Part shown: one piece after another, positions 21,381 through 63,700 of the stretch
How the letters are laid out: every line of letters begins with the position of its first letter
Position numbering within the stretch: position 1 is the first letter of the stretch
Position numbers and translations under genes: made by a program
Notes under the pieces: model-generated
What the model saw: only the letters and a program-made list of their open reading frames with translations
Database searches by the model: none
What the model was told of the DNA's origin: nothing
NCBI RefSeq assembly: GCF_964355755.1
Contig: NC_092673.1
Span: forward strand, 16,464,948-16,528,947
DNA length: 64,000 nucleotides
DNA from: Antedon mediterranea
Taxonomy: Eukaryota > Animalia > Echinodermata
Direction: 5' to 3'

Positions 21381-21532
21381 CTAAAATGCACTGCTTCCCC
21401 AGGGCTGTTAGTCAAGGGTACTTGTGTGGGGTATGCAGTAATACGATAGTTTAGTTTAGTTCTGTAGTTATAATGCTTTATATTTCACATGACAGAAGAT
21501 TGTAAAAATCTGTTGAATCAGTAAGTTTGTCT

Positions 21533-24697: not shown

Positions 24698-24784
24698 AAG
24701 AGAATGTGTAGGCTTACTTTTACACTAGAAGCTATCGGCATTAATAATTGTTAAATGAAGACACTGTATTTTTGCAATGGAAAG
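24698..24784 (+). CDS. Exon containing the proposed start codon (ATG GAA AG| at 24777)
   Basis: TATTTTCAG acceptor and AAAG|GTACGT donor. Phase 2 matches the next exon. Confidence 0.65.
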
Positions 24785-27700
24785 GTACGTTTTTAACAAT
24801 TATTTCAAACAAAAATAACCAGCTCCAATATGTGTTGATATTATTGACATATTGAAATATGTAAAAACAAATTAAAATGTTTGAATAGTTATATTGACAT
24901 ACATATATATACATAACATACTTTATAATCAGAATTTATAGTTCAAACAAAAAGAAAACACTTTGATTTTAAGATATTCTTTTGAGAAAAATACTTCAAA
25001 CTTTCTTAAAAGATTATAAAATCCAAAATTCTTTCTTTCTTTCTTTAAAAATTATGAAATCATAAATATTACAATTAAAGGGCTTATTCTCATTAAATAT
25101 AATAATAATAATATTTCCATCAATCATCATTCTCATTAAATACACGGGTATAAATGGATTATTTCTTACATTTTGACAGGAAACATTTGGTAGAAGCTTT
25201 GTCAAGGAATGATTTGAAAACAATTAAACAAATCTGTAAGACGCAACCAGGTCTTCTGAAATCTATCGATGAGGTATAAAAACAGATATATTTTTATAAT
25301 ATTATCAAAGAAGAAATTCTTTTCATTAAAGTTTAAAATTATAGAGGATGTAATTTTCTTTAATAGTTTAAATCTTTTTTACATACTGAATTACAATTCT
25401 TTTGCATTATCACACTGATGATGGAAGCTTACCTCTATGTACTGATTAACAACATTAGGCTAAAAATAATAATATAAATACACACTGATGATGGAGGTAT
25501 AACCTGCATGTACTGATTAACCACATTAGGCTAAAAATAATAATATAAATACACACTGATGATGGAAGCTTACCTCTATTTACTGATTATCCATATTAGG
25601 CTAAAAATAATAATATAAATACACACTGATGATGGAGGTATAACCTGCATGTACTGATTATCCATATTAGGCTAAAAATAATAATATAAATACACACTGA
25701 TGATGGAAGCTTACCTCTATGTACTGATTATCCATATTAGGCTAAAAATAATAATATAAATACACACTGATGATGGAGGTATAACCTGCATGTACTGATT
25801 AACCACATTAGGCTAAAAATAATAATATAAATACACACTGATGATGGAGGTATAACCTGCATGTACTGATTATCCATATTAGGCTAAAAATAATAATATA
25901 AATACACACTGATGATGGAAGCTTACCTCTATGTACTGATTATCCATATTAGGCTAAAAATAATAATATAAATACACACTGATGATGGAGATAACCTGCA
26001 TGTACTGATTAACCACATTAGGCTAAAAATAATAATATAAATACACACTGATGATGGAGGTATAACCTGCATGTACTGATTAACAACATTAGGATAAAAA
26101 TAATAATATAAATACACACTGATGATGGGTGTATAACCTGCATGTACTGATTAACCACATTAGGCTAAAAATAATAATATAAATACACACTGATGATGGA
26201 GGTATAACCTGCATGTACTGATTAACAACATTAGGCTAAAAATAATAATATAAATACACACTGATGATGGCGGTATAACCTGCATGCACTGATTAACCAC
26301 ATTAGGCTAAAAATAATAATATAAATACACACTGATGATGGGTGTATAACCTGCATGTACTGATTAACCACATTAGGCTAAAAATAATAATATAAATACA
26401 CACTGATGATGGAGGTATAACCTGCATGTACTGATTAACCACATTAGGCTAAAAATAATAATATAAATACACACTGATGATGGGGGTATAACCTATGTAC
26501 TGATTAACCACATTAGGCTAAAAATAATAATATAAATACACACCGATGATGGGGGTATAACCTATGTACTGATTAACCACATTAGGCTAAAAATAATAAT
26601 ATAAATACACACTGATGATGGAGGTATAACCTGCATGTACTGATTAACAACATTAGGCTAAAAATAATAATATAAATACACACTGATGAAGGAGGTATAA
26701 CCTGCATGCACTGATTAACAACATTAGGCTAAAAATAATAATATAAATACACACTGATGATGGGGGTATAACCTGCATGTACTGATTAACAACATTAGGC
26801 TAAAAATAATAATATAAATACACACTGATGATGGGGGTATAACCTGCATGCACTGATTAACCACATTAGGCTAAAAATAATAATATAAATACACACTGAT
26901 GATGGGGGTATAACCTGCATGTACTGATTAACAACATTAGGCTAAAAATAATAATATAAGTACACACTGATGATGGAGGTATAACCTGCATGCACTGATT
27001 AACCACATTAGGCTAAAAATAATAATATAAATACACACTGATGATGGAGGTATAACCTGCATGTACTGATTAACCACATTAGGCTAAAAATAATAATATA
27101 AATACACACTGATGATGGGGGTATAACCTGCATGTACTGATTAACCACATCAGGCTAAAAATTATAATATAAATACACACTGATGATGGAGGTATAACCT
27201 GCATGTACTGATTATCCACATTAGGCTAAAAATAATAATATAAATACACACTGATGATGGCGGTATAACCTGCATGCACTGATTAACAACATTAGGCTAA
27301 AAATAATAATATAAATACACACTGATGATGGGGGTATAACCTGCATGTACTGATTAAAAACATTAGGCTAAAAATAATAATATAAATACACACTGATGAT
27401 GGGGGTATAACCTGCATGCACTGATTAACCACATTAGGCTAAAAATAATAATATAAATACACACTGATGATGGGGGTATAAACTGCATGTACTGATTAAC
27501 AACATTAGGCTAAAAATAATAATATAAATACACACTGATGATGGAGGTACAACCTGCATGTACTGATTAACCACATTAGGCTAAAAATAATCATCCTCAT
27601 ATATAAATAGGCCTACACACTGATGATGGGGGTATAACCTGGATCAACAACATTAGGCTAAAAACTAAAAACATTAATAGAATATGATTTTCATTAAGGC

Positions 27701-30700
27701 AAATGGTTTAAATTAAATTTGTTATCGTTAACATCTAACTTAACTTAATTATGATATTGGTTTCATTGGGTGTTAAAAATCAGTACCGAAAGTAAGCACA
27801 TTAACAAAAATCAAATTTGATTAAAACAAACCAAATAACTAAATAGTTATATATGATTTATGATAACTGATTTAAAGTGTACAGTTACCTATCATATAAC
27901 ATAAATCTTTAATTTTCTTAATGAACAAAAAAAATCTATATTTTTTATATATTCAGTCATTAATCAACAATTATTGACAATGGTCTAATTAATTGTAAAT
28001 ATGAAATAAAATGCGACAACTACTAAACAACTAAAAATGTTTATGTTAAAAAAATTAATAGAATCTGATTTTAATAAAAAAAAATAATTATTAATTAAAA
28101 ACCTGCTCCCTCCCTTACCTTACAAAAAATGCTTCTGTCAGTCTATCCAGCTAATTATAAACATGGCATTAAACTACATCTGGAGATCCGTTTCCAACCT
28201 AGGATCTTTTTGTGCAAACATTTTGCCGCAAAATGAAGAGAAATGTAAACAATGTTTTGTTAGTTTTCAAAATCTAAATTGTGTGAGTAATGCAATTTAA
28301 AAAAGAAAGGCAATATGAAATTATTCTTTTCGAACTGAATGCTTTTAAGAAAAGTTCCGTCTCTTATCTTATGACTTTTTTTGAAAAATGAATTCTCGTT
28401 AAAATATAATATACTAGTAAGTGCTCACAGATGCTTCTTGAATACATGAACTTTGGTAAATAACGGAAAATTGTCTAAGTCGCACTGTACACAAAGCAAA
28501 TAAATTCATATCTGGGGAATAAATATACACCTATTACCTTAGAAATAGTGACGTGTCTCATTCAGCATGGGGCACCAGTAGCATTGCAAAATGAGGTAAA
28601 TGTACAGGGATTTGCTAGTGTAATAGGCTAACATTCTATAGATATGCTGTGGTAAACCATTCTATTTTGTTCTACTCATTTATTAATAATGATAATTATG
28701 ATTATTTATCACAATATTTAGCAGCAATTGTTGTTGTTTGTATTGACAAAAAACAAACAATTTCACATAATGTCTGTTGTCAGTATTTATAAACTTCATT
28801 ATGATTCCTTTCCAGAATGGTGACACTCCATTACATTACTATCTGAGGCATGGATACCCTACCTTAGAAATAGTGACGTGTCTCATTCAGCATGGGGTAC
28901 CAGTAGCATTGCAAAATAAGGTAATGTACAGGGATTTGCTAGTGTAATAGGCTAACATTCTATAGATATGATGTGGTAAACCATTCACATATAAACTTCA
29001 TTATGATTCCTTTCCAGTATGGTGAAACTCCATTACATTCATATTTATGGAGTACTGTACCTACCTTAGAAATAGTGACTTGTCTCATTCAGCATGGGAC
29101 ACCAGTAGCATTGCAAAAGAAGGTAATGTACAGGGATTTGCTAGTGTAATAGGCTAACATTCTATAGATATGCTGTGGTAAACCATTCTATTTTGTTCTA
29201 CTCATTTATTAATAATGATAATTATGATTATTTATCACAATATTTAGCAGCAATTGTTGTTGTTTGTATTGACAAAAAACAAACAATTTCACATAATGTC
29301 TGTTGTCAGTATTTATAAACTTTATTATGATTCCTTTCCAGAATGGTTACACTCCATTACATTTATATCTGGAGAGTGGATATACACCTACCTTAGAAAT
29401 AGTGACGTGTCTCATTCAGCATGGGGCACCAGTAGCATTGCAAAATAAGGTAATGTACAGGGATTTGCTAGTGTAATAGGCTAACATTCTATAGATATGC
29501 TGTGGTAAACCATTCTATTTTGTTCTACTCATTTATTAATAATGATAATTATGATTATTTACCACAATATTTAGTAGCAATTGTTGTTGTTTGTATTGAA
29601 AAAAAAAAACAAACAATTTCACATAATGTCTGTTGTCAGTATTTATAAACTTTATTATGATTCCTTTCCAGTATGGTAACACTCCATTACATTCATATCT
29701 GAGGAGTGGACCTACCTTAGAAATAGTGACTTGTCTCATTCAGCATGGGGCACCATTAGCATTGCAAAATAAGGTAATGTACAGGGATTTGCTAGTGTAA
29801 TAGGCTAACATTGTATAGATATGCTGTGGTAAACCATTCTATTTTGTTCTACTCATTTATTAATAATGATAATTATGATTATTTACCACAATATTTAGTA
29901 GCAATTGTTGTTGTTTGTATTGACAAAAAACAAACAATTTCACATAATGTCTGTTGTCAATATTTATAAACTTTATTATGATTCCTTTCCAGAATGGTGA
30001 CACTCCATTACATTCATATCTGTTGAGTGTATCTACTGCACCTACCTTAGAAATAGTGACGTGTCTCATTCAGCATGGGGAACCAGTAGCATTGCAAAAT
30101 AAGGTAATGTACAGGGATTTGCTAGTGTAATAGGCTAACATTCTATAGATATGATGTGGTAAACCATTCTATTTTGTTCTACTCATTTATTAATAATGAT
30201 AATTATGATTATTTACCACAATATTTAGCAGCAATTGTTGTTGTTTGTATTGACAAAAAACAAACAATTTCACATAATGTCTGTTGTCAGTATTTATAAA
30301 CTTTATTATGATTCCTTTCCAGAATGGTGACACTCCATTACATTCATATCTGTTGAGTGTATCTACTGCACCTACCTTAGAAATAGTGACGTGTCTCATT
30401 CAGCAAGGGGAACCAGTAGCATTGCAAAATAAGGTAATGTACAGGGATTTGCTAGTGTAATAGGCTAACATTGTATAGATATGATGTGGTAAACCATTAT
30501 ATTTTGTTCTACTCATTTATTAATAATGATAATTATGATTATTTACCACAATATTTAGTAGCAATTGTTGTTGTTTGTATTGACAAAACACAAACAATTT
30601 CACATAATGTCTGTTGTCAGTATTTATAAACTCCATTATGATTCCTTTCCAGGATGGTGACACTCCATTACATTCATATCTGAGGAGTAAATTTAAACCT

Positions 30701-33700
30701 ACCTTAGAAATAGTGACTTGTCTCATTCAGCATGGGACACCAGTAGCATTGCAAAATAAGGTAAATGTACAGGGATTTGCTAGTGTAATAGGCTAACATT
30801 ATATAGATATGATGTGGTAAACCATTCTATTTTGTTCTACTCATTTATTAATAATGATAATTATGATTATTTACCACAATATTTAGCAGCAATTGTTGTT
30901 GTTTGTATTAACAAAAAACAAACAATTTCACATAATGTCTGTTGTCAGTATTTATATTACCTCATTATGATTCCTTTCCAGTTTGGTGACACTCCATTAC
31001 ATTCATATCTGAGGAATCGTGGATATCCACCTACCTTAGAAATAGTGACGTGTCTCATTCAGCATGGGACACCAGTAGCATTGCAAAATGAGGTAAATGT
31101 ACAGGGATTTGCTAGTGTAATAGGCTAACATTCTATAGATATGATGTGGTAAACCATTCTATTTTGTTCTACTCATTTATTAATAATGATAATTATGATT
31201 ATTTACCACAATATTTAGCAGCAATTGTTGTTGTTTGTATTGAAAAAAAACAAACAATTTCACATAATGTTTGTTGTCAGTATTTATAAACTTCATTATG
31301 ATTCCTTTCCAGTATGGTAACACTCCATTACATTTATATCTGAAGAGTGCATATACACCTACCTTAGAAATAGTGACGTGTCTCATTCAGCATGGGGCAC
31401 CAGTAGCATTGCAAAATGAGGTAAATGTACAGGGATTTGCTAGTGTAATAAGCTAAAATTCTTTAGATCTACTGAAATAAACTATTCAGTGAGAGAAAAA
31501 AGTAAGCCCATTAACAAAAATCAAATTTTATTAAAACAAACCAAATTAAAATAATAACTAAACAGTTATATATGATTTATGATAACTGATTTAAAGTATA
31601 CAGTTATCCATCACATAACATTAATGTTTTTTCTTAATGAACAAAAACAATCTACTTGTAATTTTTTATATTCAGGTGAATCTATATATAATCAGTATAA
31701 TTTTGTTTAAATACTTTTTACCATAAAATAAATATATATTGCTCATATGTAGCTGTAAAGATAACAACAATTGAAAATGGTCTAATTAATTATAAATATG
31801 AAATAAAATGAGACAACTACAGTATGTTGACAAATAATAGAATAGCAAACAAAAATGTTTGTGTTATTGTTAACAAAATTAATAGAATCTGATTTTAATA
31901 AAAAAGAATTATTAATTGTTAATAACTTGCTCCCTCCCTTACCTTCCAAAAAAATACTTCTGTCAGTATATCCAGCTAATTACAGTTTGAATATGGCCTT
32001 TTAAAGAGATCTTTTTCCAGCATTTTTTTTTTTGCAAATATTTTGCCACAAATGGAAGAGAAATGTAAATAATGTTTAGTTTATAGTGGTTTCCAAAATC
32101 TAAAATTGTTCGAACAATGCAATTAGACATTTTTTTATATTCAGGTGAATCAGTATAATTTTGTTTACATATTTTTGACCGTAAAACAAATATAAATTGG
32201 TCATATGTAGCTGTAAAGATAACAATGATTGACAATGGTCTAATTAATTGTAAAGATGAAATAAAATGGGACAACTACATTGATTAATAATAAAATAACA
32301 AATAAAAATGCTTATGTCAAAAAAATTAATAGAATCTGATTTTAATAAAAAAATAATTATTAATTAATAACCTGCTCCCTCCCTTACCTTACAAAAAAAT
32401 GCTTCTGTAATAGTAATAGGCTAACAATCTTTAGATCTGATCCATGGTAAGATATTCTATTTTGTTCTCATTTATCAATCATGTCAATTAGGATTATTGA
32501 CCACATTATTTAGCAGTAATTCTTGCTATGGTTTGGGTTGACAAAAAAAAACCCAATTTCACATAATGTCTGTTGTCAGTATTATACACCAACAATATTG
32601 CAAAATAAGGTAATGTACAGGGATTTGCTAGTGTAATAAGCTAACATTATATAGATCTGCTGAAGTAGACCATTTAATGAGAGAAAAAAGTAAGCACATT
32701 AACAAAAATAAAATTTGATTAAAACAAACCAAATAAAAAAATAACTAACTAGATTTAAACTCGTCACTACGGACGAGTTAGGTTATCCGCAGCGCAAAAG
32801 GCACGTGCACGTCATACGTTAGAATATTACGCGCAGAAAAACGTTTACACCATTGAAAAAATGATAGTGCGCCCTCTATTTTGCGTCACGTCTGAGTATA
32901 TACGGTATACACTATATACTATATACGTATAACCATACAGTGCAGAATAGTGAAAAGAAGTGACCAAAGTTATTAACGCTTTTGAACATGATGACGTAAT
33001 AACAATTTTAAAAATTGTAAATCATGCGAAAGATAATTGATTGACCTAAACAATATAAAAAATGGAGGGCAATGGAATACGGATAATTGGAGATGCGCTC
33101 TATTAAATGTGATGAGCTATGACGAAAGAGACAAAAATCCTATTATTTATATTCGAGTGGCCATACGATGACGTCACAATGTCCGGTTAGTCATATTGAT
33201 GCATGATTTGATATCTGCAACTCATCTACTACCAGAATATGTAATTTTAAAAAAGTTCACGACGTAGTTTAGAATTTATGACTGTTTAAAAAAAGGCATA
33301 ATTTCGACAAATTTTTGAACTTTTTCATCAAAAATGCGCGTAAAATGTTTAATTCTACGTGCTCGTATGACGTGATTTTAAGTCGAAATTGTTTGAAAGT
33401 TGGTAAATTTTCTAAAAAAGACAGGAAAAACAAAAATCAAGCAAAAAAATGATGTTTTTGCGCTACGTGCGCACGTGCGCGTAAAAAAATTGCGCACGCG
33501 TGGGAATTTTTGAAATGCTCAAAATGACATGAAACGCGTAGAAAGTTGATTAGATATTGATTTTTCGCATTTTGAAATTTTAAACGCGCGTAAATTTTTG
33601 TGAAACATGCCATTTTTAATCCATAGAAAGTTTGCGCTTGATATGACTTAAAGTTTCACCAAGTTTCAATACAAAACGACTTTTAGTTTTTAATCAATCA

Positions 33701-36700: not shown

Positions 36701-39700
36701 GTAAATTCTGAGAATTTTAAAAAATACTATGACGGTACTGACAAATTTTCCTTGCAACCTGTAAACAACGATATAGTTAAAAAGGAGATCTTGGGTCTCA
36801 GTATAAATAAAAGTACAGGTCTAGATTGCATACCCACACGTTTTTTAAGGGATGCGTCCGAAATTATTGCAACTCCCATAACACGGATTATCAATTTCTC
36901 ATTTGAAACGGAATGTTTTCCAAATGAGATGAAATTGGCTCGTGTTTGACCAATTTACAAGAAAAAAAATAATCTTGAAACTGCTAACTATAGGCCTGTC
37001 AGTATACTGTCGGTGGTGTCAAAAATTGTAGAAAAGATTGTTCACTCACAATTAAATGAGTTTTTGGAAAGGAACAAGCTTTTATATCGTTTTCAGTCTG
37101 GTTTCAGACAGTCCTTTTCAACAGATCACTGTTTAATTCACTTGACAGACTTCATTAAAACTCAAACAGCGAAAGGGAAATTTACTAGTATCTTACTTAT
37201 TGACATCCAAAAAGCTTTTGACTGCGTTATAGTCATGACTTACTTTGTAAGAAACTCAGAAAAATTGGAATCGAATCTGTCAGCTGGTTTAAATCATATC
37301 TGGAATGTAGACATCAAACAGTCAATATATTGGTGGGGCTGTTTCAGAGCCTTCAGAAATTGTATGTGGAGTGCCACAAGGGAGCATCCTGGGACCACTC
37401 CTGTTCCTCATCTACGTCAATGATATGCCTATGTCTGTCTCATCATTGTTAATGCAATATGCTGACGATAGTGCAATTGTCAATGCTCATCATGATCCTG
37501 ATATTATCAGTAAAAATCTTGCTAGGGATCTGTCTAATTGTAATAAATAGTTAATTGACAATAATTTATCACTTCACATGGGAAAAACTGAACTAATGTT
37601 GTTTGGTCCCAGGATGTCTCTCAAGAACTACACAAATTTTAGCGTCCTTTACAATGGCTATACAATTTCTTTGAATAGCTCTATAAAATACCTTGGTATC
37701 GAACTAAGCAATAGGCTTAATAGTGAATTAATTGTCTCAACAATTATTAAGAAAGTTAATGGTCATATTAAATTTGCGTATAGGAATTGTCGTAACTTTG
37801 ATCGCTGTATTCGTAAACTCATAATGGAAGCCCTGGCTCTAAGCCATATAAATTATGCTATATCATCCTGGTACTGGGGTACAACCGCGGATTCCCGTAC
37901 TAAACTTCAAAGAACACAAAATAAAGTAATTAGATTCATCTTAGGGAAACATAATAGATACCATATCACCAAAGACGATTATACTTTTCTTGGTTTATTA
38001 GATGTTAAAACCAGGGCCGAACAAATGACACTACAACACGTACAGACAATATATACAAAAAGTTGTCCAGACTTTATGTTAAATAATTTTAATAGGATAA
38101 ATCATAACCATATGGTACTAGAGGTAAAGATTGTAATTTTATTGTTCCAATGAATAACTATACTGTTAGTAAGACCCTTTTTTTTAATGCAATCACACTG
38201 TGGAACAAATTACCAATAGAATTAACAAATATTTTTACACACAATAGTTTTAAAAGGACTCTTAAGAAATTTTTATTAACAAATATGCAAATTATATAGA
38301 CCTAAAATTATGATTGACTTTTCTTGTAAATAATAGTAGATATTTTTATAATTAATGATTATCAGAATTCGGCATAAATCTAACATGTAATTAAATTAAT
38401 TTCTAATACTGTATAAAATAATAATAGATCCATATTTTTGTATAATTATTCTAATATTGTTTTATTATGTTGGGGACCCCTTTGGAAACAAGCCTCTGGG
38501 CTTAAAGGGCCATCCCCTGCTTTCCATGCTTATTTTCTTGTCTAGTCTTGTATTTTTATATTTAATGTTTCTCTTTTTATTTCATTTACATTATACTGTT
38601 TTATATATTTGTACTGTATTTGGAAAGCAATAAATATTACTTACTTACTATTACTTACTCACCAGTAGCATTGCAAAATAAGGTAATGTACAGGGATTTG
38701 CTAGTGTAATAGGCTAATATTCTATAGATCTGATGTGGTAAACCATTCTATTTTGTTCTGGTTTACCACATTATTTAGCAGTAATTTTTACTGTATTGTC
38801 TCGTATATGGTACATCTGCAGCATTGCAAAATAGGGTAATGTAGGCTTACAAAGAATTGTCAGGACAATTTCACATTTTATTGTTATCATGAGTATTTAT
38901 AAACTTGAACTTCAGTATCAATTAGCCTCCATATTAATCAATAGTATTACTACCTCAACGAGCAGCATTATTTAATCAGACTTACCGATATAGAATTCTC
39001 AAGTAAAAAATGTTTGATTGTTTTCACCTTTTTCTCTTTTTACACATAGCACATTCTAAGAAGTTTGTTTTGATTTTGATATTCATTTATAAGTCAACTA
39101 TAATTGTAATGTGTTGTTGTTTTAATATTTCATTTGTATCTTGATAGTATCCAAATATTATTTGCTTTGAAAGTTTATTGTAAAACTATTTGTTGTTTTA
39201 TATTATGGCTCAAACATTTTAACACATTTACCTACTGTTCCAAAGTAAACTTTTATTCAATTTATCTCTCTCTCTCTCTTCCATCTTTCAATGTTGAAGG
39301 CGGTAGACTATAAACGGCAGCGCTTAAGTTTTGGTTTGGATACAGGAGTTATAGGTGGCGCACTGTACAAGTTGATGTCATTTATTGGCAAATAGTAATT
39401 TCTATTCACGTCCTAATTTACAACCAATGTTAAAAAATAGTAAAGCTACGTGTTATCACATGATGCTCTTTCATCCAATCTCTAGATGGTAAATGTTTGA
39501 GCCATGACTGTATGTATGTGATGCGTATTAAAGTGTGTTATATTGTATATCAATAATTTCTCAAAAACTACTAATAGTAACTAAACCCATTTTTTAATAG
39601 GATGGAAATACACCTGTCTCTGTTTTAGAAAGTAAGAGGTGGATAGGGGACCAGAGAAAAACTGAAATTTTAAACTTCTTTAAAAGTAAGTGAAGTTTTA

Positions 39701-42700: not shown

Positions 42701-45700
42701 GCTCTACCAAGTGTATAAAGTGTATATTTTACAAAATATTTATATTATACAAACATGTAGAGTGTTCATTGCATTTTATCAATAAATACATTTAGAGCAA
42801 TTATGACACATTGTACATTCTAGGCTGATTTTTATTTTTTTACAATTAATATTTACAAAAGTGTAGCGTACACACATAATGGGGAACTAATGACTGGGGA
42901 CAATGAGCACATTTTCTGAGCGTGCCTTAGTAGGACCAGAAAAACGCCCTTATTGTAAGCCTTTAAAGGTGCAATTCCAGGTCTATATTGACAAAATTGT
43001 TTGACATCAGCCTAAACCATGGCAGGGTTCGAGTTATGACAAACAGGTATAAAAACAAAATTGGTTACTGGTCATAAAACAGAATATAAATAAAAACATT
43101 CAAAAAGTTCAAAGCATATTGAAAACTTACGATAGATGTTTTTAATCGCATTTCCTACTGCCTCATTCTGAATCATACCAGTTATTCATTTCAGGATTAC
43201 TATATTTTCACTTTACCCATTGAAACCATGCTAATCAACCGTATGTTGCTATAATTTCAACGATTTAGATTCAGGATCGCTGTCAAAAAATGTTGCATAA
43301 CGTCTATATGTTTGGATGAGTTTGATTTTTTTTAGGACATAATTTAAATTAATAACTGTAGTTGTAATAACTGTATACATTGTAGTTAAAAATATACATT
43401 GTTATTATAGTATATTCAGAATGAATGATTGCTTGTACACAATCACCCACAAGTGTTTGTAAGGCTTTGTATCACACAGAGCCTTATACAACCTTATACC
43501 ATTGAAAAAAAAAAGCTATGACTTTTAATATAGTGTTTTTTATGAAAATTAAATATGTAATATTTTGGTTTTGTGCATTTTTTTAGATTTACCAAGTACT
43601 GTTGATGAGCAATTTCAAACACAATTTCAGAAACAGACAAGTGATGAACAGAAAACAAAACTTCTTAAGCCAGAGAGTGGTAAGTTTAAGAATAAGAGCT
43701 GCTGTATGTTTTATGATTGTATCTATATATAATTTAACAGAATTGTGATTAAAATGGGATTTCAGTAGAGAGAATTAGACGCTAATGTTATTTAAAAAAT
43801 CATTTCTGAGCGGTACTGTAAAAAGGCGAAAAAGTGTGCAACTGATAACAAATAACAAATGGAGAGATTTTATTTATCATAAATAATAACAGTTGATTGT
43901 TTCCATTTAAAATACTGTAATACTGGAATGAAGCTAGTTTGCAGATTTATGTGGCATGCTTGCTTGATTTTTGCTTGATTGTTGATTTTTAGGTTATATG
44001 CATTATCATGCGATTTAACGAAATCACGTTTGTAATCATATCTTCACAAGCATGAATCACTTTTAAACAAAATTTGGTACTCATAAATTTCAGGTCATTA
44101 TTTCATCATATGACAATACAATTACGTGCGTAGCGCATATAACGCATGCGTACGCGCGCTTAAAATTTCCAAAATTGTCAAAATTTATTTTCGATGAAAT
44201 TAGAGTACGTTTCAGGCAATTTTAAGCATTTAAAAAATTGCCATGAGTGCACAGATTTTTGCACGCGCACTGCTTGTTAAACGTTAATGCACGATTTCTG
44301 TTGTACAACCTTTCTTTAATAATATCATCATATTTTATTCACTTTTCAACTCGAATTTGCGTTTTCTTACGAGCACGTCAAAAGTGACAGGCTACGCACG
44401 TGTAAGTTAACAAAATGGTGAAAATATGCTAAATTAAAAAAAATAATATAGATCGTAAGAATGCTCGGGAACACATATTTTTTATTTCATTTTCTTGAAG
44501 TGTATGTATCATATGTATGATTTATTATGAAATTAAGAGTACAAAAGTTGATAAAGTCATCATTAATTGCATTTTAAAATTTAAAAAATTTATTTCGACA
44601 ATCAAAAATTTATGACATTTTCTTAGGCCGAAATAACAAACTTTAACTTTCTTCCTTCAAAATAAAAGTTCATATATTAAAGGTAAAAGTATATAGTTTG
44701 ACAGTGCATCGTTTTTTTAACATTTTTAAAGATGTCATCATAGTAAAAAATTATAATTCATTGCGGTATGTCGTAATCTATCTGCGCCAAAGTGGTTACT
44801 GCATAGTAAATACACGGAGGAATCTTTCTACAACTTTTAGTCAGTTGTGTATGGCTCGGTGGTCTGTGCTCGTGAAATAAGATTTTTTTTTATTATCCAT
44901 ATTGTTTGTTCAATTTTATTTTTTAGTGTATAGATTATACACATAATTTATCATGAAATCTAGATAAAATGTAAGTAATGTCTTTATTATTATGTAACAA
45001 TGTGATTTATGACATTATACGCAGAGGGATCTTTGATCGGATTGTGATACCGGCTATTGTATTCCCGTTAGCAAGATCCTATATTATAAACTAGATTTGA
45101 ACTCGTCACTTTGACGAGTTAGTTATCCGCACGACAAACGCCACGCGCACGTCATACGTTGGAATTTTGCACACGGAAAAAGATTATGGCTGTCATATTA
45201 TTGATGTTGTGATTCTCTGTGTTTAGAGAAGGATGCTTTAGACCAGTTCCGCCTTATTATTAGCCAATCAAAATCGTATAATTTTTAGAGGGAAAATGTT
45301 ATCCTCCTCTGAAGCCTAAAATTTGCATATCCAGTATAAAAGTAGAATGTAATAGATATTAGAGGAGAAGAGAGAATAAGATCAGAGTAGATAAACGGAA
45401 AGATGATAAAGAGAATATTAAGGCTTGACTGGTAGTGGTAGAAAGATGTATTAATCGAGTTACAAGGAATAAAAGTTCTAGTTGAGTTAAATATACTTTT
45501 TGTATGAGTTATCATTCAGTGACAGTGTACGTCGCGTGGAGTTATATATATACGCCTGAGAAAGCTCGGAACCAACTAAAATAAATTCACTACAATGGCA
45601 TTATGACCTGAATTTAAGAATATTATATGCTGTTAGTGCTGAATTCTGTCAATTTTGTGTCATATAGTATATACAGTGCAAACGGTATAATCTGTATACA

Positions 45701-48700
45701 TGTTACATACAGTGTAGAATAGGTGAAATTACGGGACCCCCCGTTTATTCCTATTTTTAACATGGCGACGGTATCAAAATGAAACACTAAGATAGCAATT
45801 TGAGAAGGAAATTATCTCAGTAACAACATATTAACGTGCAGAAGAAATTTGAATACGTGAAATATTGATGCTTGCTCTTTTAAATGTAATGAATTATGAC
45901 GCAAAAGATGAAAATACAAGTTTTTTTATTTAACTGGCCATATGATGACGTCACAACATCCGATTTGCAACATTTTCTCATGATTTCGTATCTACAATCC
46001 AATAGCTTCCAGAAAACGTTTTAATCGTGATTATCACATTTTATTTGTACGAGCTATAACAGATTAACATTTACTGTAAAGATGAAATTAATGGCACACG
46101 TAATTTAAATGTTTAGGCATGATGACGTCATACAAATTAAAATATTTTTAACTCATGCGAAGGATAGTTGATTGACCTAGACAATATCGAAATCGGGGTG
46201 AAAATGGAAAACGGATAAGTGGAGATGCGCTCTATTAAATGTGATGCGCTATGACAAAAGAGACAAAATCCCTATATTTTATATTCGAGTGGCCATACGA
46301 TGACGTCACATAGTCCAGTTAGCCATATTAATGCATGATCCGATATCTACAACTCATCAACTTCCAGAATATGTAATAACAATAATTTTCACCGTTTAGT
46401 TGAGAAGCTACGACGGTTTAAAAAAATGCATCATTTTGACGAATTTTTGAACTTTTTCATAAAAAACGCGCGCAAATTATCCAATTCGACGTGCTCGTAT
46501 GACGTAATTTTAAGCCGAAATTGTTTAAAATTTGGTAAAAGTACTGAAAAAGGCTGGAAAAACATAAATCATGCGGAAAAAGTATGTTATCAACGCTACG
46601 TGCGCACCGCGCGCGTGGTAATTTTTGACATGCTCAAAATTACATGAAACGCGTAGAAAGTTGATTAGAAATTATTTTTTCGCATTTTAACATTTTAAAC
46701 GAACGTGCGCGCGTAACTTTGTGTAAAACATGTCATTTTTAGTGCACAAAAAGTTAGCGCAAGATATAAATTAAACTTTTGCTGAGTTTCAATTTAAATT
46801 GTTATATGGTTTTCGATCTATGTTAAATACGCGAAATTCATAAAATCGCGCGTAAGTCACTTTGCGCATTTCTGACGTCATTCACAAAAGTGGCTGCACA
46901 ACTTCACGTAAATGCGCACATGTTGACAAAGTTATAAAATGTTAGCTTTACACGTTTTAGAGATAAGCTCTGCACAAAAATGACAGAAAGAAAGAAGAAT
47001 AATACAGAAAAACTAGATTTGAACTCGTCACTTTGACGAGTTCGGGTTATCCGCGCATACGCAACATGCACATACTTTAAACTATATGAACCTCGACAAT
47101 TATTATGCCATCCTATGACATGAAATAAATATGTTTACAGTGCTGAATTGTACCTATTTTGTAGCATACATTATGTTACAGTATTTACAGAATACACTGT
47201 ATGTTATATACAGTGTAGCATAGACGGAATTTCGAGACCTATCTTTTAAATCCAATTATTAACACGATGACATCATCAAATTGACATAAAAATAACACTT
47301 TTAGAAGATAATTATCTAATTAATTACATTAATACAAATTTAAAGAATTTTGGTCACGTAAAAGTGAGATGCGCTCTCGTTTAAACGCAATGAACTTTTA
47401 CGCAAGAGGTGAAAATATGACTTTTTGAATTCAACTGGCCATATGATGACGTCACAACATCTGATTGACAAAATATTCACATGAATTCGTATCTACAATC
47501 CAATAGCTTCAAGAAAACGTTTTAATAATGATTATCACTTATAACTCTGACGAGCTATAACCGATTGAAATTTACTGTAAAGATAAAAATAAGTGACCCA
47601 CGTTATTTACATTTTTAGACATGATGACGTCATAAAAATTAAAATATTTTTAACTCATGCGAGAGGGAGTTGATTGACCTAGACAGTATTAAAATATATG
47701 AGGAAATGGAATACGTATAAGCGATATGCGCTCTATTTAATGTAATGAGCAATAACGAAACAGTAAAAAAACCAATATTTTACATTTGTGTGGCCATACG
47801 ATGACGTCATAACATCCGAGGGGTAAAGATTCTGCATGAATTCATATCTACAACATATCTGCTTACATATTAAATTTTAAAAAATGGGGGTAACGGTTGA
47901 TCCTGAGGAGCTATAATAGATTCAAAGTAGGCATAATTTTGACAATATTTTGTCTTTTTTGCAACTAAAACGCACGCAAATTGTCTAAATCAACGTGTTC
48001 GTATGACGTCATTTTAATTTGAAATGATGTCAATCTTTTTTAAAATGACTAGGAAAGGCTGGAAAATCATAATTCAAGAGAAAAAAACATGATTTTCATG
48101 CACCGTGCGCACCATACGCGTAAATTTTTTCGCACGCGCGGGAATTTTTGACATGCTCAAAATGTCATGATCAGCGTAGAAAGTTGATTAGAAATTAATT
48201 TTGCGCATTTTGAAACTTTAAATGCGCGTGCGCGCGTAACTTCTTGTAAAACATGTCATTTTTAATCCATAGAAAATTGACCCATGATATGAATTATAAT
48301 TTTATTAAGTTTCATGAAACAATATTTGTTGGTTCTAAAGTTATGATCAGTTATAGAAATTCATAAAATCGCGCGTAACTTACGCAACGCGTATCTGACA
48401 TCGTCCAAAAGCTTGGCTGCACATCTACCCTTCAATGTCAATCTTTTTACCAAGTTATACAAAGTTATGTTCACAAGCAATAGAGATATGCTGGTCACAA
48501 AATCCGGGAAAGAAAGAATAACAAAGAAGATGAAAAAAAAGATATTTACAATCACATGGGTTATCCTGCAACTAAGTTGCGGATAACCAAAAAAAAAAAG
48601 ATGAAACAGGACAGTTACAAGGAGTTATCCGCTGAATGCGGATAACTAATAATTAAAGATTCTGAGAAAATCAATCAATCAATATATCTTTTAAAAATCA

Positions 48701-51700
48701 ATTATCTTTATTTAAATCAATGCATATAACCAAATTCTAGTTTTTTTTTAACTTTATTTACTCCAGATGTTTAAAAAATCTATTAAAATCTTGATTCAAT
48801 TTTCAGATATTGCTGCACGTGAATTAGATTTTCAGAAAGCATACAATGAAGCCTTGAAAGATGGATCCGTTCCAGTCAATCTTGGAATGCTTAAAGTGAT
48901 TGGGCAAGAAGGAGTTGGTAAAACATGCCTCATAAATGCATGTCTTGGAAAAGAGTAAGTAGTAGTAGTAGGACAGTGAAATGAACATTACAAAATATTT
49001 GTGAGTCAACTAAGAATTACAAACCAGCCAACTTTTATTGATTTGATTTTGATAAACTACCACTTTTTAAATATTGCAGTGATAGATAACAATAGTTGAA
49101 TAAAAACGTCTATAAATATATAAATCGGTTTCTACAATAATCATAAAACCATCAAATTTTCTATAGAATATAGAATTTGCTTTTAGGCTTGTATTTAAAA
49201 AAAAGATCATACGAATGGTCGGATAACTTGACTTCCTAAATGTATAATTAATGAATATATTAAAATGGTTTTGAAGTAAAAGGAGAAAAGTGCATGTTTT
49301 ACAGTACCTGTACTTAAAATGACTGAAGTTCATTGTTGGTTTCAAATAATTTTGCCAGATTTGAGGAAAAGCATGTACTTACAGATGGCATAGCGGTGAT
49401 AAGAACAGCAAGCACAACATGGACAGAGGCTAAAGCTGATAGTGGTAAACATGAATACAAATTAGCATATTACTCTTCCCATCATCATACGTTATGTAAC
49501 CATATTTATCAATAATTATTATCATAGACACAAACAAGTCCACAATGAAATGGAGACATAGAATGGAATTCAATAAATGTATACAACCGTAGTATGGATT
49601 CAACAGTCATATTTTCACATACATTACAATTGTTACTCTATGATCCCTTTATAACGCACACATTCTTTGATGATGTACTGTAATTGTAATTTTACTTCGA
49701 CAGTAGTAAAATATCCAAAGTATAGTCACATATGAACGTATGTGCTGAAATAATATGTACACACTTTCTCTTTCTCTACAGGTGATCCTTCAAAACAGTA
49801 TACGAAAATGGTCACTGACAAATTGAGAGCAAAGGAAACTGTAAGCGTATGTCAGTAATAATAGGGTGGTTTCGCAACCATACGAATACGATAACGAAAA
49901 CGGATACGTCACACATTTGTGAAACTTTTGAGCTGATCCCCATTTCATATTCGTAAGGCGTATTTGTGTTGACGAATATCACCAGTCATATTCGTAACTC
50001 CAAAACGAGTATAGTTTTTGATCTATTTTGCACATTTTGCATTTGAATTAGGAATGATTCATGATTATTATATAATTATGGATTTATTGAAAGTAATTTA
50101 CTAAAGTAATTCACTAAAATGCCAGGTCAATTTAGATAAATAGCAGTTTTTAAAGTCCTCACTCGCTTTGATGTTACGCTAGGCCTAGGCAGCTGGCCAA
50201 GCACCAAGCAACACATACCTGCGCTTCGCTCAAATTTACCGCAGTCATATTTTAGACGCGCCTCGATATTTCGTTGCCATGCGAAACAGATTTTTCTATG
50301 GCTTACGAAAACGAATACGTGTGCGTGACGTATCCGTTTTCGTTATCGTATTCGTAAGATTGCGAAACCTCTCTATTGAATTAAGTAGCACCTACAGGAC
50401 TATTGCAAACCAGTCACTTAGGCTTTCTTTCTAAATGAATCAATGAGGCATTATGAGTGGCTATTTCATTTTTTTGCTTCAATCCTTTTAAAATTTACTC
50501 TAAAAATTAATTTGGTTTTGATTTTGAGAGTAAATAATATTAGTTTTCTCTTATATTAAATTGTAAACAATACTGTATTTAACTTTGAATAAACATTTGT
50601 TTCTTTTTTATATCCATATATTGTTTTTGTTTTATGTGTCAGACACCACCTATAGATGATAATAATGACAACAATGATGATTACAAAACTGATGACAACA
50701 ATGATGACAAAAATGATGACAACAATGATGACAACAATGATCGTATGTAACTTTCCCTTAAATTTTAATTATTTTTACATTTTTGTAGTAAAAGCATTAA
50801 TAAATAAGTTGCAATTATCAGTTTGCAATTTCTGTCATATTAAACATCTATTGTCCCCAAAAAACATGAAAAATAAAGATTATTAAAATCAGACTTTGAA
50901 TAGATTATTTTGTAGTCAATCACTTCTGTAGAAAAAAAGGAAACACATATAAAATAACAAAAAATAAATGGTTAAATTCAAGCAAAAACCCATTGGCTGG
51001 CAGTCAATTTGACTATTTTTTGCTTAAAATTACAGTTTTTTAGGTAAATACATTTTTTTTCAATCCAATTTTTGGTCAAAGTGGATAACTATTAGGTGAC
51101 ATTAAAATTGCATATTTAAACAAATATTGTAAGAATTATTTTTTCAAGGGGACATATTTAAGTTCATAGTTATTTAAAATAATAAGATTATTAATTAGAT
51201 TTTCCAATTTAATGTAACTAAAGAAGTATAAAATTATGTTATCAGATTTATAACTTAGAGGCAACCTATCTGTGTAACAATTATGGTGACGGTAATTTAG
51301 AGAAAACATGGCAGCGGCCATCCCACTGCTAGACAGTCCACAGACGCTGTACATGCAGGCTTGATGGGCATGTTTCTTTGTTAGCAAAGTTAAACAAAGA
51401 TGAACTAAAACACTTATTAAAACCTTAAAAGGGGCTTACAAAGATGCTTATTTTTTTGTATGAATCTAGAAGAATCAAAGTGAATTCACAGTCTACACCT
51501 ACTATATAATATACATATACTAGCTTATACAAATGTGCAGTTAATAGTTTGTATATATTACTGTATCCTTTCACATCTACCGTCCCCTTTCGCTTACCGT
51601 CCCGATGCAAAAGCTCACTAATGATGATAATGAGGACAACTATACTCATAGTAATGACTTTTTAACTGACTCATTAACTATGATGATTATAGATGATTAT

Positions 51701-54700
51701 AGGACTAAAACAATGATGCTTGTTATGCCGTTTGTGGAATGACCAAAAAACTTGTTCCCACTACAGGTGCTTATACAGTTACTGAAGCTATCCCATTTGA
51801 TACAGAGCAGCAATTAGATAATGATGTAATCAAGAATGTTGTTGAGGAAAATAAGGAGACTTTGGAAGAAACATTCAACATCTGGGACCATGGGGGACAA
51901 TTAATCTACCATGGTCTACATCGGGTAAGTAGGTTTCTGTATAGACTAACATGATTGTATGGCCAAGGTATAGTTTGCTTTTTTCTTTTTTTTTCCCATT
52001 AAGCAATCGCAAACATCTTTCCATGGTACTGCATAGTAATATATATAACAATTTAATATTAAATTCTTGTCATTTGATTGGAGGATTGTGGGTCACATGA
52101 TATTCAATAGACATACTATTAAACTTTTAAGTCAGATTGCACATTCTTATGTTACACAGTGAGCAACCGAAACATGGGACGCAAGAATAGACTACCTACC
52201 TTGTCATCTGCCAAGGTAGTAAGAATAGACTGCGTGTTAAAAAATCAATCTGTATTGTCGCGTCTATAATTGTTCTACTTCTCTAATAGTTTAGGCCTTG
52301 GCCTAGCCTCTCGTTAAAAGAATAACACACCTACTTTTAACAAGAGGCTAGGCCATTGAAAAAGTAGCACTCTAATTTTAGACAGGGAGTAAAACAATTA
52401 GACACGGCACACACTACAGGTTAAGGAAATGTGATCAGTCAACAACAGCCTCTTCACTGTGTAAAATATGCGCAAAACAAAATTGCAGTATTCGCACACA
52501 TATAACGTTGCACTCTTGATGACATCATTAGGAGAGCATTTATTTATATCATGCAACCCATAATCCTCCAATCAAATAAAAGAATATACTTAGGTGTGTT
52601 ATAATATACAAATAATGAATGTTTACGAGTGCACTGGGGCAAATAATTTCATGTGATAAAAGTAGAACATTTCATCTATCACTACGCCAACTTGGTAATA
52701 ATATAGACAATACTCACACAGATAATACAACTGAATAACCGATACTTGAGGTATAACAATAATGTAACTTTATTAACAAAGCAAACAGTAAACATTCGTA
52801 TGTAAAACAACAACAACGAGGGGGCTCATATGGAGCGCCGTACGTGACATAACAGCCAAACTGGCGTGACTACCTTTTTTTTTTTTTTTCCTTTTCTCAA
52901 AAAAAAACAAAGTCAACAACAAAAACGGCAAATCGGGACAAACTGTGAATCAAATATAAAAAATTGAAAAACGAGCTTTCATCGGGTAGACTGCCCTCCA
53001 GCTTGGGGATTATTCTGCCCCACAATACTTATCAGGAATCACTTGTCAAGTACAAAATCGTTAAGATGAGTGGGTAAGCGATGACTGCGAGTAGATCGTC
53101 TGGGTTCTATCACTGGTGGTGGAATAACGACTTTATGAAGGTCGGTGAGAGGGCGGACATCATCAGAAGCAGCAGGAGTTAAGAACTCTGAGTCGGTACC
53201 AGCAGGCAATGGATCAACCTGGTAAGCGTGATCGGCTGGGGTTGACAGCTCAATAGGTATTTCTGTACGCGGTGGCTCAGGAATTTGATAATCATCATCG
53301 CTGTTCGAGTCCTCTTGGTAATAATGTTGCGATCGAGGAGATGGTGACGAGGGAACCTTGTAGCATTCCGTACGCTTGACTTTGTACGCCGTACTACGTA
53401 ACTGAGAACCGATAAATTTGCGGATATTGCACCAAGTGTTATCAACCGACGTTACGAGATAGCGATGACGGGCCTTTGACTTGTTGCGATCGGCTAAGAC
53501 GTACACAAGATCACCAACATCAATATCGGAGCTTGCTGGAAAACGGCCCGTTGGAGCCTTTGATCTTTCACTATGTGCATGATTGGCTAAACGACGTTTG
53601 TGCTGTGAGATAATTAATTGACTGTCAGACAGAGGAATTTGGTCGTTAGTAAACTGGTCGCGTTGTGTCCACATCTCCCTAGAAGAGAGACCACATGAGC
53701 GTAGTCGAGAGTTTAAGCAAGCCATAGTAATTTTGAGCATAGTTGGGGTGACTAATCCACCAGTGGGTTCTTGTGTAAGAAGTTCGTCTTCTACTTCACG
53801 TACGGCCTTTTCGGCGATTGGATTCTTATTTGGGTTTTTGGTTCTTCCTAGCTCAATCATTATTCTGTGGTGCGCTAACAACTTATCGCTGACCAACGAA
53901 GCAAATCCAGGAGCAGGGTCGGTGCGAATTACAGCGTGTGGGCCGTCAAGAGGCCTGAGCTCGATACAAAGGCGGATTAAACCGTCTCGTAGACTGTCGT
54001 GACGTTCGCTGTCGATAATGCACGCGACTGTAAATGATGTTACACACTCTCGCATCACTAGAATAAGTTGTCGTTCACGCTTAATTACATCAGCAGCGAA
54101 GGTGGTACCAACTGCATCGGGTGGGTCTCCGGTGGACTGCGGGATAACGGTATGTGGAATAGAGCGAAGGGCAGCGCAGTGGTGACATCTTGCTGAGATA
54201 CGCTCCACAGAGGCATCCATGTCGAGAGCGAAGAAATATCTACGAACGATCGTTTTAAGCTGATGGCACGAAGGGTGGTCAAAACGCAGATGAAGTGCTG
54301 TGAGAAGGCCCTCGAGGACATCACGAGGAACAACAATACATTCGCGTACGGGTGCGAGTGGCTCATCCCTACGAACGACCAAAAGACCATCCTTGGCTAT
54401 GGTAGAAAATCGTAGAAGGCGCTTGACATCTTTAATGTTTGTGATTTTTTTGTGGGGGCGAGTACCCTGAGAAAGGTGAGCGTGAGTGCGTCGTAGGACC
54501 GGACATTCAGACTGGATGGCCAGCCAGGCAGGACGACTAGTGAAAGGTAGCTTTGTGGAGCCAGATATAACGTCTTTAATGTTCACTTGGAAAACAACAG
54601 AGTCTTCGGTTTGTTGGACAAAAGAGCAGATTTGGCAAGAAGGAGCGTCACAAGGTTGTGCGTTCCTGCTCCCGAAGTCGGACGGCATATTTGCGGAACC

Positions 54701-60700: not shown

Positions 60701-63700
60701 GAAATAAAATAAACAAGACTAATTACTACTACTCATCTCAGGATGGCATTCCACCTGGAGAGCATCTTCGACTTAACTAAGACGTTGCTTTTAATCGTTG
60801 AGACTAAAACATTTTCGCTTGCATTTAGTCTACCCATCAGGCCATATATTGATTTTCTTAACAATTCATAAAAAGAAGGAATTCTACATTCCGTAAACAT
60901 AAGGCTGGCACTGCAATGTCGAGGCATTTGTTGCAACAATACAATTTAAAATAATGTTTGTTCATATGTTGTCAGAATATTAATCTGTCAATATTTGAAT
61001 ATTTTTGCAGATGTTCATAACACTACAAGCACTATACATTGTTGTGTTTGATCTCAGTAAACCATTGGATGATCTTGCTACTTTCATTGATTCTACTGGA
61101 GTAAGTATTTCTAGAGCATGGCAGCAGTAAGGCATTGTGATTGAACAAGTCTTCTAATTTATAAGAACATGCATTTTATGCATTAAAATTTTAATACCTT
61201 CCAAATAAGATGTACAGTAGTAATGAATGCTTTCAAAAACTAACCATTTCAAGTTTAACTGTGGTTAAGTGTTCTCATAATGTTTTTTTTTTTACAGGAA
61301 ACGTGTAAACATCATTGGACCAATCTGCAGTTCATATTATCTTACATCCTGTCAGTTTATTCTCATAGTCGTATTGTGGAAGAAGATGAAGAGAATGAAG
61401 TTCATAAACCAACTATCCTTATTGTGGGTACACATAAGGGTAAACTTGGTGAGACTGAAGAACAACAAAATGTTGAGGTTAATGCTTCTTTTTTTTTTCT
61501 ACATTATTAAAGATAGCGATAACCAAAGATACGTTGCTGCTCTAAAAGTAAATTTAACAAAAATTAGAGTACATATTTATAACTTAAGCCATCACATAAA
61601 AAGTTTAAATTTAAATCTTACTTAAAATAAATTACAGAATTTACACATTCGTATATAGATGTAAATCTTTATTTACAAACAGGCAGAAAAGATGTTTAAA
61701 AAGATTCAAGATGTGCTTAAAACAAAACCATATGGAAAACATGTGTACCAATATTTTGCCATTGAAAACAGCCAAGAAACGACAGATAAGAGCTTTAGTG
61801 ATCTCAAACAAGTTATTGATGACCTTATGAAAGCTTTAGAAAAGGAAATTCCTTTAAAGTGGATGCGTTTTCGATGTGGACTAGATGATCTAAGGAGAGA
61901 AAAACAGCCCTCTTTTTCTTTGTGTTCTTTAGAAGAGGTAAAGGTTATTTTTTTTTTTTATTTATTTATTTATTCGGTATATAAAAATATATTACAAAAC
62001 GACAGTCAAGGACTGAAATGAAATGTATTACAAATGACTAAAAATTAGTTAAAATTGCTATAAAAATAGAAACATCTTAATAAAATTAGATATTGTACCA
62101 TACAATTAAAAACATTCTTCAAAACATTTTAGGAAATAATATTGTATAGAATATTTATCAAGTATCTATTAAAAAGAAAGTCTAAATATAATTTTCAAAA
62201 TGATCTTTATACTGGAATTTGTCATAACCATTTAAATAACAATATTCAAGATCATAATTTCATCTTTTATATATGTTGCCATTGTTTTATTTATAATTAT
62301 TACTAAATACTGACCTAATAATTGACAAAATTCCTGATAATTGCTTAGTTTTTTTTCGTGCCACTATCGAATAACATTGTTTTTAAAACATGCACAAAAA
62401 TAATAGAAAAAAGTATACTTTGTATAATTATTTATTATTACATCAATTAATATGAATTTATATATGTAACATTTATTTATATTCTCTACACTGAATTACC
62501 AAAAAGTGTTATTTACTAAAACAATTGATGCTGTTAAAGACCAAAATAATGTTGGTAATAAATACATACATACATATTACAAAAACTGAATAGGATTTCA
62601 TTAAAAAAAATCTGATTAACACTAATTTTTAAAGCTCAAAACCCTGGCAAGTAATAATGGTATTGTTGACAAAAAACCCAAATCAGTCCTGCTTATAAAC
62701 TTGCACGATCATGGTGAAATTGTTTACATGCCTGACAACGAATTACTAAGCAATAAAGCAGTGTTAGATCCAATGAGACTGGTTGAAATTGTTACGACAT
62801 TTGTAACTGTGGTTCCCCCAAAAAAACATGTAAGTAGACTCATGTAATGTCTTGCATTTGAAAAACGTGTTGCAGTAACATAATTACTCCTGTTCTGTGC
62901 TAAATTTCTTGCTGTTCTATATATAAGTATGCTGGAAGACATCATTTGCAATTGACTAAAGTTTTAATTATCTTACTTTCATTGTATTATAATTGAAAAA
63001 GTGAAAAGCACAGCAACAAACTACTGTAATTTCACAACTGCATTATACACATAACATTCATATTATTTATTTATTCATATTATAAAAGTTTACTATATTT
63101 GTTGACTATTTCCAACATCCTTCCTGCCTCCCTCTTGATTCCCTCCTGCCACTCTGTAATAACAACACAAAATATCAATTTTTTTTTAGTTCGGTATGTT
63201 TAATGAATCTTTTGATAAGCTTGACAAAGGCATACTGGAAGAAAGGTTGTTGCGAAAATTATGGAAAAAGCGTAAAATTGACGACGGAAAGAATTTTGAG
63301 TTTCTTGTAGCACTGATGATCCAATTGGGTTTCATTTGTGAAAGGAAGACAACCAGCAGCCAAAATATGGCAAGTACATCTACAGTAGGTTTTGTTCAGT
63401 TATCATTTCTAACATGTTATATTTTGCATGCAAGCATATGTGAAAAAAAGATTTTTTATATGATACCTAATTGGTGAAATTTAAAAAAAAAGATGTTTCT
63501 AATATACAGGAAATAATCTTTAGTTTTCTTTTTAAAATTAATCTAAATAGCATTTTACAAATCAAATTTCAGGAATCAGTTGTGAAGCGATCTTTTTTTG
63601 TGCCACTACGCCTTGCTTTCAAGACATCAAGTGAAGTGAAACCAGTGCCTGATGAATTTCCAGCTATCAGTATCTATTACGACTTTAAGGGATATCTTCC

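Follow-up and report, generated by a model that had tools for sequence, protein, structure and literature searches.

Exchange between repeat units and diversity at predicted binding-face codons in a tandem ankyrin exon array of a feather star Roco gene

The feather star Antedon mediterranea carries, on contig NC_092673.1, a gene for a predicted Roco protein with an ankyrin head, and diversity among the repeats of this gene is concentrated at the codons of the predicted ankyrin binding face. We analysed a window of 64,000 nucleotides (contig positions 16,464,948 to 16,528,947, forward strand; window positions are used below) in which the ankyrin exons form a tandem array at 28596-31420 with a period of ~330 bp, divided here into exons and introns at the splice signals. 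A sequence-only reading of this DNA had taken its title from introns more conserved than the exon loops and from mosaic units, a title that omits this stronger signal. The explanation that we consider probable is that recombination between the units homogenises the introns and the repeat framework and mixes variants, that selection diversifies the predicted binding face, and that the product is a variable immune sensor.

As predicted from its exons, the locus is both a Roco and an ankyrin protein. A Roc domain is encoded and directly followed by COR, and the array exons contain the TPLH motif and the helix-turn-helix repeat fold of ankyrins. The gene model begins with an ATG at 24777, reaches 63875 and comprises 24 exons, with consistent phases, canonical GT-AG splice sites and 1006 codons without stop or frameshift, on the assumption that two damaged ankyrin exons (28505-28595 and the one starting at 35101) are skipped; the gene extends beyond the end of the window. 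Pfam Roc scored E 0.07 and 0.0067 on single exons and E 3e-14 and 1e-24 on the near-identical relatives P0032 and P0002, and Pfam COR-A scored E 1.2e-5 on exon 62635, under the curated cut-off since the exon is a fragment; the relatives bear PF16095. Each array exon corresponds to one ankyrin repeat, and Pfam Ank (PF00023) matched all four exons scanned (E 4e-7 to 5e-3, three above the cut-off). The nine exons measure 102, 105, 105, 108, 108, 108, 111, 111 and 111 nt, that is, four distinct lengths, all multiples of 3 and every one keeping the frame. A profile of the nine, compared with PDB sequences, gave designed ankyrin repeat proteins (DARPins) as top matches.

Divergence and sites were counted on eight of the nine units, setting aside the unit having the 97-bp intron as well as the length-variable loops, gap columns, the truncated exon and the exon broken by a long interspersed nuclear element (LINE). 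The eight full-length introns, which make up two thirds of each unit, are 97.7% alike (mean pairwise difference 2.3%, range 0.5-3.7%). In the exons the mean difference is 4.1% over the last 63 nt and 9.6% over the first 30 nt. Framework codons taken without the few hypervariable ones differ by 2.1-2.6%, the same level as the introns, and hypervariability is confined to those few codons and the loop between helix 1 and helix 2. This loop spans 9-18 nt (3-6 codons) with a mean pairwise identity of 56% (range 39-100%), and mean column identity across the repeats is 83% including the loop and 94% in the helix-2 framework. The earlier description of near-identical introns of 219-222 bp beside barely alignable loops holds for eight of the nine introns, the exception being the 97-bp intron at 28921-29017, and for the loops on average, those of exons 29993 and 30323 being identical. 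As it stated, the introns are more conserved than the loops; they are not more conserved than the framework codons.

The ANK-N5C designed library randomises ankyrin positions 2, 3, 5, 10 and 13, the residues of the beta-turn and first helix that make up the binding surface (PMC4308713). In our inferred numbering of the exons, taken from the capping sequence in that source and from DARPin alignments, each of the five is variable in amino acid across the nine exons, as against 5/28 other aligned codons (P 0.001). The proportion of replacement differences (pN) is 0.315 at these five positions and 0.037 at the other codons, the proportion of synonymous differences (pS) is 0.049 overall and the introns differ by 0.023; at the five positions, which were named in advance, replacement diversity exceeds the synonymous and intron levels by a factor of 6-13. 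Alternative codons divide into 21 replacement and 2 silent. The Nei-Gojobori comparison over all 33 aligned codons (pN 0.083 against pS 0.049) is weak by itself. Position 33 is invariant in the array, and the length-variable loop lies directly after position 14. A predicted model for the ankyrin domain of relative P0034 (predicted local distance difference test score, pLDDT, 89), used as a stand-in for the spliced protein of the window, places this loop between the two helices and matches ankyrin-B and DARPins in fold; the single-sequence fold of relative P0031 was uninformative (pLDDT 47). These comparisons make diversifying selection on the predicted binding face likely.

The array belongs to a larger family. 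A search with one COR exon retrieved 30 proteins, 26 from A. mediterranea, 24 of them on one contig, and 4 from Anneissia japonica, also a feather star, and searches with the repeats found A. mediterranea proteins of the same design. A comparison of 28 repeats, 9 from the window and 19 from seven proteins, distinguishes 26 loops, which measure 3-9 residues. The frameworks are 0.94 identical inside the window, 0.84 inside P0034 and 0.65 when the two are compared; uniformity within subfamilies together with difference between them is what concerted evolution would produce. A second subfamily, with a framework of its own, varies at the same positions. P0034 has the architecture ANK x8-Roc-COR-DED, and DED domains are present in P0034, P0009 and P0030. 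More generally, the Roc-COR core of the family is joined to varied ends, among them ankyrin, DED, and kinase plus Death (P0002, P0009, P0024, P0034); the two Roc-COR units of P0002 may have been fused in annotation. Four linker and Roc exons of the window are 100% identical to P0006 and later exons are closest to other paralogues, which may reflect mosaicism at the gene level or incomplete annotation. Relatives predicted in another assembly are mostly fragments without most of the repeats, and gene catalogues probably hide the family for this reason.

An account without diversity selection and without a sensor, in which copying and conversion of the 330-bp unit proceed as in other tandem repeats and a tolerant loop, once diverged, escapes conversion, appears unlikely. 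It would suit a window rich in tandem arrays and an array with broken exons on both sides, and a 71-bp minisatellite in the intron directly before the array (25411-27591, ~31 copies) has similar diversity (3.8%) and some mosaicism. Neutral turnover of this kind is, however, difficult to reconcile with single variable codons flanked by invariant ones, with the replacement excess at positions named in advance, with four exon lengths that all preserve the frame, and with variation at the same positions of the second subfamily.

Exchange between the repeats, whether by gene conversion or by unequal crossover, is supported because the units fit no single tree. For the recombination tests the array was cut from loop to loop, again with eight units and the loops excluded. 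Incompatibility affects 42 of the 78 informative pairs of sites. Among all 10,395 possible trees the shortest takes 29 steps, compared with a minimum of 17. The 12 extra steps are about as many as in freely shuffled columns (mean 10.8) and were reached in none of 600 clonal simulations, including those with 30 mutable sites, the maximum being 10. The introns alone show 4 extra steps on 6 sites, a value reached in none of 300 simulations per setting with 219, 100 or 50 mutable sites and in 8/300 with only 25. Identical tracts connect non-adjacent units (198 nt at a distance of two units, 148 nt at a distance of three) and the ends of the first and last exons (91 nt), the longest being located in introns, and the nearest-neighbour unit switches along each unit.

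The sequence-only reading had proposed frequent conversion or crossover. Exchange is borne out by the homoplasy on whole units and introns and by the tracts of 91-198 nt, and a single duplication tree, which that reading had named as an outcome that would contradict it, does not fit; the word frequent goes too far, as one haplotype gives no time scale. The four combinations that it listed for two framework sites are present (ACG+GCA at exon 29342, ACT+GCA at 29672, ACT+ACA at 29018 and 30653, ACG+ACA at 30982), and the distance between the sites, given as about 20 bp, measures 19 nt. Because the second site has four alleles (GCA, ACA, GTA and GAA), this pair alone is explicable by recurrent mutation. 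The donor variants AAG or GAG with GTAATG or GTAAATG, also said to reassort, are no evidence of it, because just three of the four combinations are seen and three fit a tree.

That reading also assigned the introns the role of homology arms that shuffle variable cassettes. In the strong form of this model the introns are dedicated arms and whole variable exons are swapped, possibly somatically; we regard it as distinctly unlikely, and both the intron-arm and the somatic-shuffling readings are unproven. The extent and uniformity of the introns and the location of the longest identical tracts would agree with it, as would the like role hypothesised for spider MaSp2 introns (PMC9779670) and the somatic shuffling hypothesised for Ectocarpus ROCO genes (PMC3341825). 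However, the introns are not singled out, since the exon framework is equally uniform and incompatible sites occur within exons as well as within introns. Because such sites lie 19 nt apart within an exon and show no distance trend, the data point to short exchange tracts anywhere in the 330-bp unit, exon and intron, rather than intron-to-intron swaps of whole cassettes. In addition, the window contains no reverse-strand ankyrin donor exons at E < 0.1, no recombination signal turned up, none having been sought, and, as Teng et al. point out (PMC11378527), somatic recombinant loci are unreported even in brown algae.

Part of the array was found in 11 sequencing runs. Contigs of four of these runs (three coded organisms), aligned on one unit, carry both alleles at the two framework sites and differ in further letters at the same codons of the exon. 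None of the listed runs is recorded as RNA; run X5, which is probably RNA by our guess and also covers introns and the LINE, has contigs that join exon end to exon start, and three contigs with loose ends resembling the end of the N-cap exon joined to the start of an ankyrin exon; these joins support the predicted splice sites for the family, not for the present copy. A 32-letter exon pattern gave 0 matches in metagenome contigs.

In the explanation that we favour, recombination between the 330-bp units would even out introns and framework and mix the variants. The exchange would consist of germline gene conversion in short tracts together with unequal crossover, within the array and probably also with paralogous genes that share the unit, and symmetric phase-0 exons would allow units to be gained, lost or skipped without a break in the frame. 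Diversifying selection would keep the binding-face codons and the loop between the helices different, so that the excess of replacements would stem from selection beyond mere escape from homogenisation. Ligand binding by the ankyrin face would switch the Roc-COR GTPase and a C-terminal effector encoded beyond the window (death-effector-type domains in some relatives). The protein would be a variable sensor within the cell, with a probable part in immunity that we infer by analogy.

Several observations weigh against this explanation. The test for selection is a simple count that takes no account of tree or recombination and has only ~23 synonymous sites; position 28, which lies outside the binding positions of the library, is hypervariable (four residues); and diverged loops can block conversion, so that they may keep diverging without selection. 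A test resembling the pairwise homoplasy index (PHI), a check named in the sequence-only reading, is not significant (p 0.25-0.52), and incompatibility does not rise with distance. The 71-bp minisatellite of the same gene, used as a non-coding control, is partly mosaic too, with 3 of 15 pairs incompatible (23 of 30 units, those of length 71) and a mean of 0.52 in 8-unit subsets; mosaicism alone is therefore ordinary for tandem arrays. The analysis covers one haplotype and 8-9 units. None of the 11 runs reaches half of the words sampled from the array (highest share 0.41), the RNA joins of X5 may come from paralogues, and none of the 15 joints listed, out of 129, splices the final exon of the array to the capping exon.

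Three further explanations have less in their favour. Relaxation of the array as the gene becomes a pseudogene would fit the truncated exon, the LINE-broken exon and two remnants around the array, the LINE and a long terminal repeat (LTR) element within introns, and the many relatives annotated as fragments; it is very unlikely given the open frame of 1006 codons, canonical splice sites throughout the 24 exons of the model, and low silent and intron divergence combined with high and specific replacements. A history without exchange (one duplication tree, with mutation recurring at a few hot sites), which the non-significant PHI-like test and two codons with four or five alleles would allow, is largely refuted and now scarcely credible, as clonal simulation failed to reproduce the homoplasy even at 30 mutable sites and the introns alone exceed clonal homoplasy too. 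We give equally little credence to an assembly artefact, a mosaic of mis-joined reads from many near-identical copies: such copies do exist (496 contigs of run X1 on one unit) and no listed run holds half of the array's words, yet both alleles of the two framework sites recur in contigs of all four runs aligned, predicted proteins of the other assembly show the same design, and the frame is intact in nine of nine exons; none of these three points bears on the order of the units.

The features of the gene within the window are collected in Table 1.

Table 1. Exons, introns and damaged repeat units of the ankyrin-Roco gene (window positions)
Feature	Position	Strand	Basis or remark
Predicted first coding exon piece (ATG, MER)	24777..24784	+	Phase-consistent model; start common to relatives P0031, P0033, P0002
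N-terminal capping exon, ankyrin domain	25180..25273	+	29/31 residues identical to P0031
5'-truncated ankyrin exon	28505..28595	+	Front replaced by 670-bp copy (91%) of intron sequence 33905-34539
Nine intact array exons, phase 0	28816-28920, 29018-29122, 29342-29449, 29672-29773, 29993-30103, 30323-30433, 30653-30760, 30982-31092, 31313-31420	+	
Nine GT..AG array introns	28596-31312	+	Eight of 219-222 bp, starting at 28596, 29123, 29450, 29774, 30104, 30434, 30761, 31093
Short array intron, 97 bp	28921-29017		Internal deletion
Degenerate repeat-unit remnant, most of exon deleted	32413..32674	+	82-91% to unit
Tenth, more diverged ankyrin exon split by LINE-like insertion	35101-35194 + ~38660-38682	+	5-bp CACCA repeat at both ends
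C-terminal capping exon, ankyrin domain	39601..39685	+	Model; 19/28 identical to P0032
Linker and Roc GTPase exons 43587, 48807, 49359, 49782, 50643, 51767	43587..51924	+	P-loop GQEGVGKT, WDHGGQ motif
End of Roc and COR exons 61011, 61298, 61683, 62635, 63190, 63573	61011..63875	+	80-93% to 14 A. mediterranea proteins

The damaged units bear on how the gene is spliced. A weak in-frame AG at 28495-28496 might rescue the truncated exon, and the tenth, LINE-split exon is predicted to be skipped; a splice over it was not found among the 15 of 129 joints listed (contigs aligned on the downstream 12.7 kb, 31300-44000). The insertion itself (35195-38659) is a 5'-truncated LINE-like element inside the ankyrin exon, with endonuclease and reverse transcriptase frames that contain a few stops, and runs X1 and X5 have ~99% identical contigs. 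A 670-bp segment is duplicated (91%) on either side of the array (27835-28504 and 33905-34539), with more shared pieces at 31499-32757, which suggests larger unequal exchanges that truncated the first exon. Within the Roc domain, an Asp/Asn-rich low-complexity exon (50643-50742) corresponds to a segment of very variable length among relatives. An LTR retrotransposon on the minus strand (52680-58388) occupies the intron between Roc exons; its 204-bp terminal repeats are 97.5% alike and its 1650-aa open reading frame is uninterrupted (53039-57991), and it is likely to be a recent insertion. Elsewhere in the window are an 89-bp satellite of 41 copies (13749-17433 and 21381-21434), in whose last unit a broken LTR-type element (17430-21380) is apparently inserted, the satellite resuming at 21381; a non-coding element of high copy number, present in three diverged copies (73-77%; 32750-33900, 46118-46999 and 47586-48539) and matched by very many contigs; and other minisatellites at 1-481 (125 bp) and 24044-24635 (31 bp).

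Known animal Roco proteins with ankyrin repeats N-terminal of Roc-COR include DAPK1 and LRRK1/2, which are conserved single-copy kinases with diverged repeats, whereas the part of the present gene within the window has no kinase or leucine-rich repeat (LRR). Roc-COR proteins have been described as switches of conflict systems, and expansions of death-domain proteins in marine invertebrates have been reported (PMC8195603); the passages of that source covered here do not mention the present ankyrin-Roco family. Our searches of the open-licence literature, without subscription papers and supplements, brought up neither this crinoid family nor an ankyrin exon array of the kind in any animal.

Brown-algal ROCO genes, studied in Ectocarpus (PMC3341825) and in four species (PMC11378527), encode one LRR per 72-nt exon, contain inactivated exons and show selection at sites of the concave face. 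Somatic recombination has been proposed for them but is not reported. Common to those genes and the present one are an N-terminal repeat domain on a Roco protein, one repeat per symmetric exon upstream of Roc-COR, an expanded and clustered family, variable sites on the concave face, and an immune role that is proposed in both and proven in neither. The present gene differs in that its repeats are ankyrins rather than LRRs, its exons are of phase 0 rather than phase 2 and range from 102 to 111 nt through the loop instead of a fixed 72 nt, and its introns are near-identical along the array. Inactivated repeat exons occur in introns of the algal genes, also on the reverse strand; here broken exons lie on the coding strand, with none on the reverse strand of the window at E < 0.1, and contigs that bear on alternative splicing show exon joins without identifying the exons or the gene. 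The host is an animal and the origin is likely independent.

In fungal NOD-like receptors (NLRs) with conserved ANK, TPR or WD repeats, such as Podospora hnwd, repeats including ankyrins combine concerted evolution with selection on a small number of binding positions. Five ankyrin positions under selection, located on the concave face, and repeat-number polymorphism have been reported, and highly conserved repeats are described as rare in animals (0.8%) (PMC4986451, PMC2873952). Diversified binding positions are shared with the present array, and concerted evolution within and between genes probably is, diversifying selection being indicated here by simple counts and not by a codon model. Fungal repeats of this class are >85% identical, compared with 83% here including the loop and 94% in the helix-2 framework. 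The fungal receptors are STAND ATPases with C-terminal repeats, whereas the present gene has a Roc-COR GTPase instead of a NACHT or NB-ARC NTPase, and N-terminal repeats on their own exons with homogenised introns. The introns recall spider MaSp2 (Argiope), in which iterated introns are 97.6% alike within the gene and have been proposed to guide recombination (PMC9779670). Both genes have regularly spaced, near-identical introns bounding each protein repeat (eight of nine introns here); the silk coding units are homogenised too, whereas in the array particular codons and the loop are diversified.

DARPins and ANK-N5C (PMC4308713) share with the array a constant ankyrin framework and variation at positions 2, 3, 5, 10 and 13. 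The array is natural, keeps position 33 invariant, varies at 28 and replaces the short turn between the helices with a loop of variable length, a feature unused by designed ankyrin libraries; its naturally occurring loop variants are a resource for designing binders. A wider proposal, tentative and on balance rather unlikely, is that feather stars possess a natural DARPin-like repertoire, in which clustered ANK-Roco death-domain sensors exchange exon-sized ankyrin modules within and between genes, by way of the near-identical introns and framework that they share, at a pace that gives binding surfaces specific to an animal or even a cell lineage. If true, an echinoderm would have a variable receptor system that works by recombination and is built from ankyrin rather than LRR or immunoglobulin (Ig) modules. 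The array as we explain it would be an animal instance of the plan put forward for Roco receptors of brown algae and NLRs of fungi, with a different repeat and a loop of variable length. The locus is of a size suited to the polymerase chain reaction (PCR) for the question of how invertebrate deuterostomes diversify non-self sensors, in the germline only or not. It works like the algal and fungal systems and is a member of neither, because it has no LRR and no STAND ATPase.

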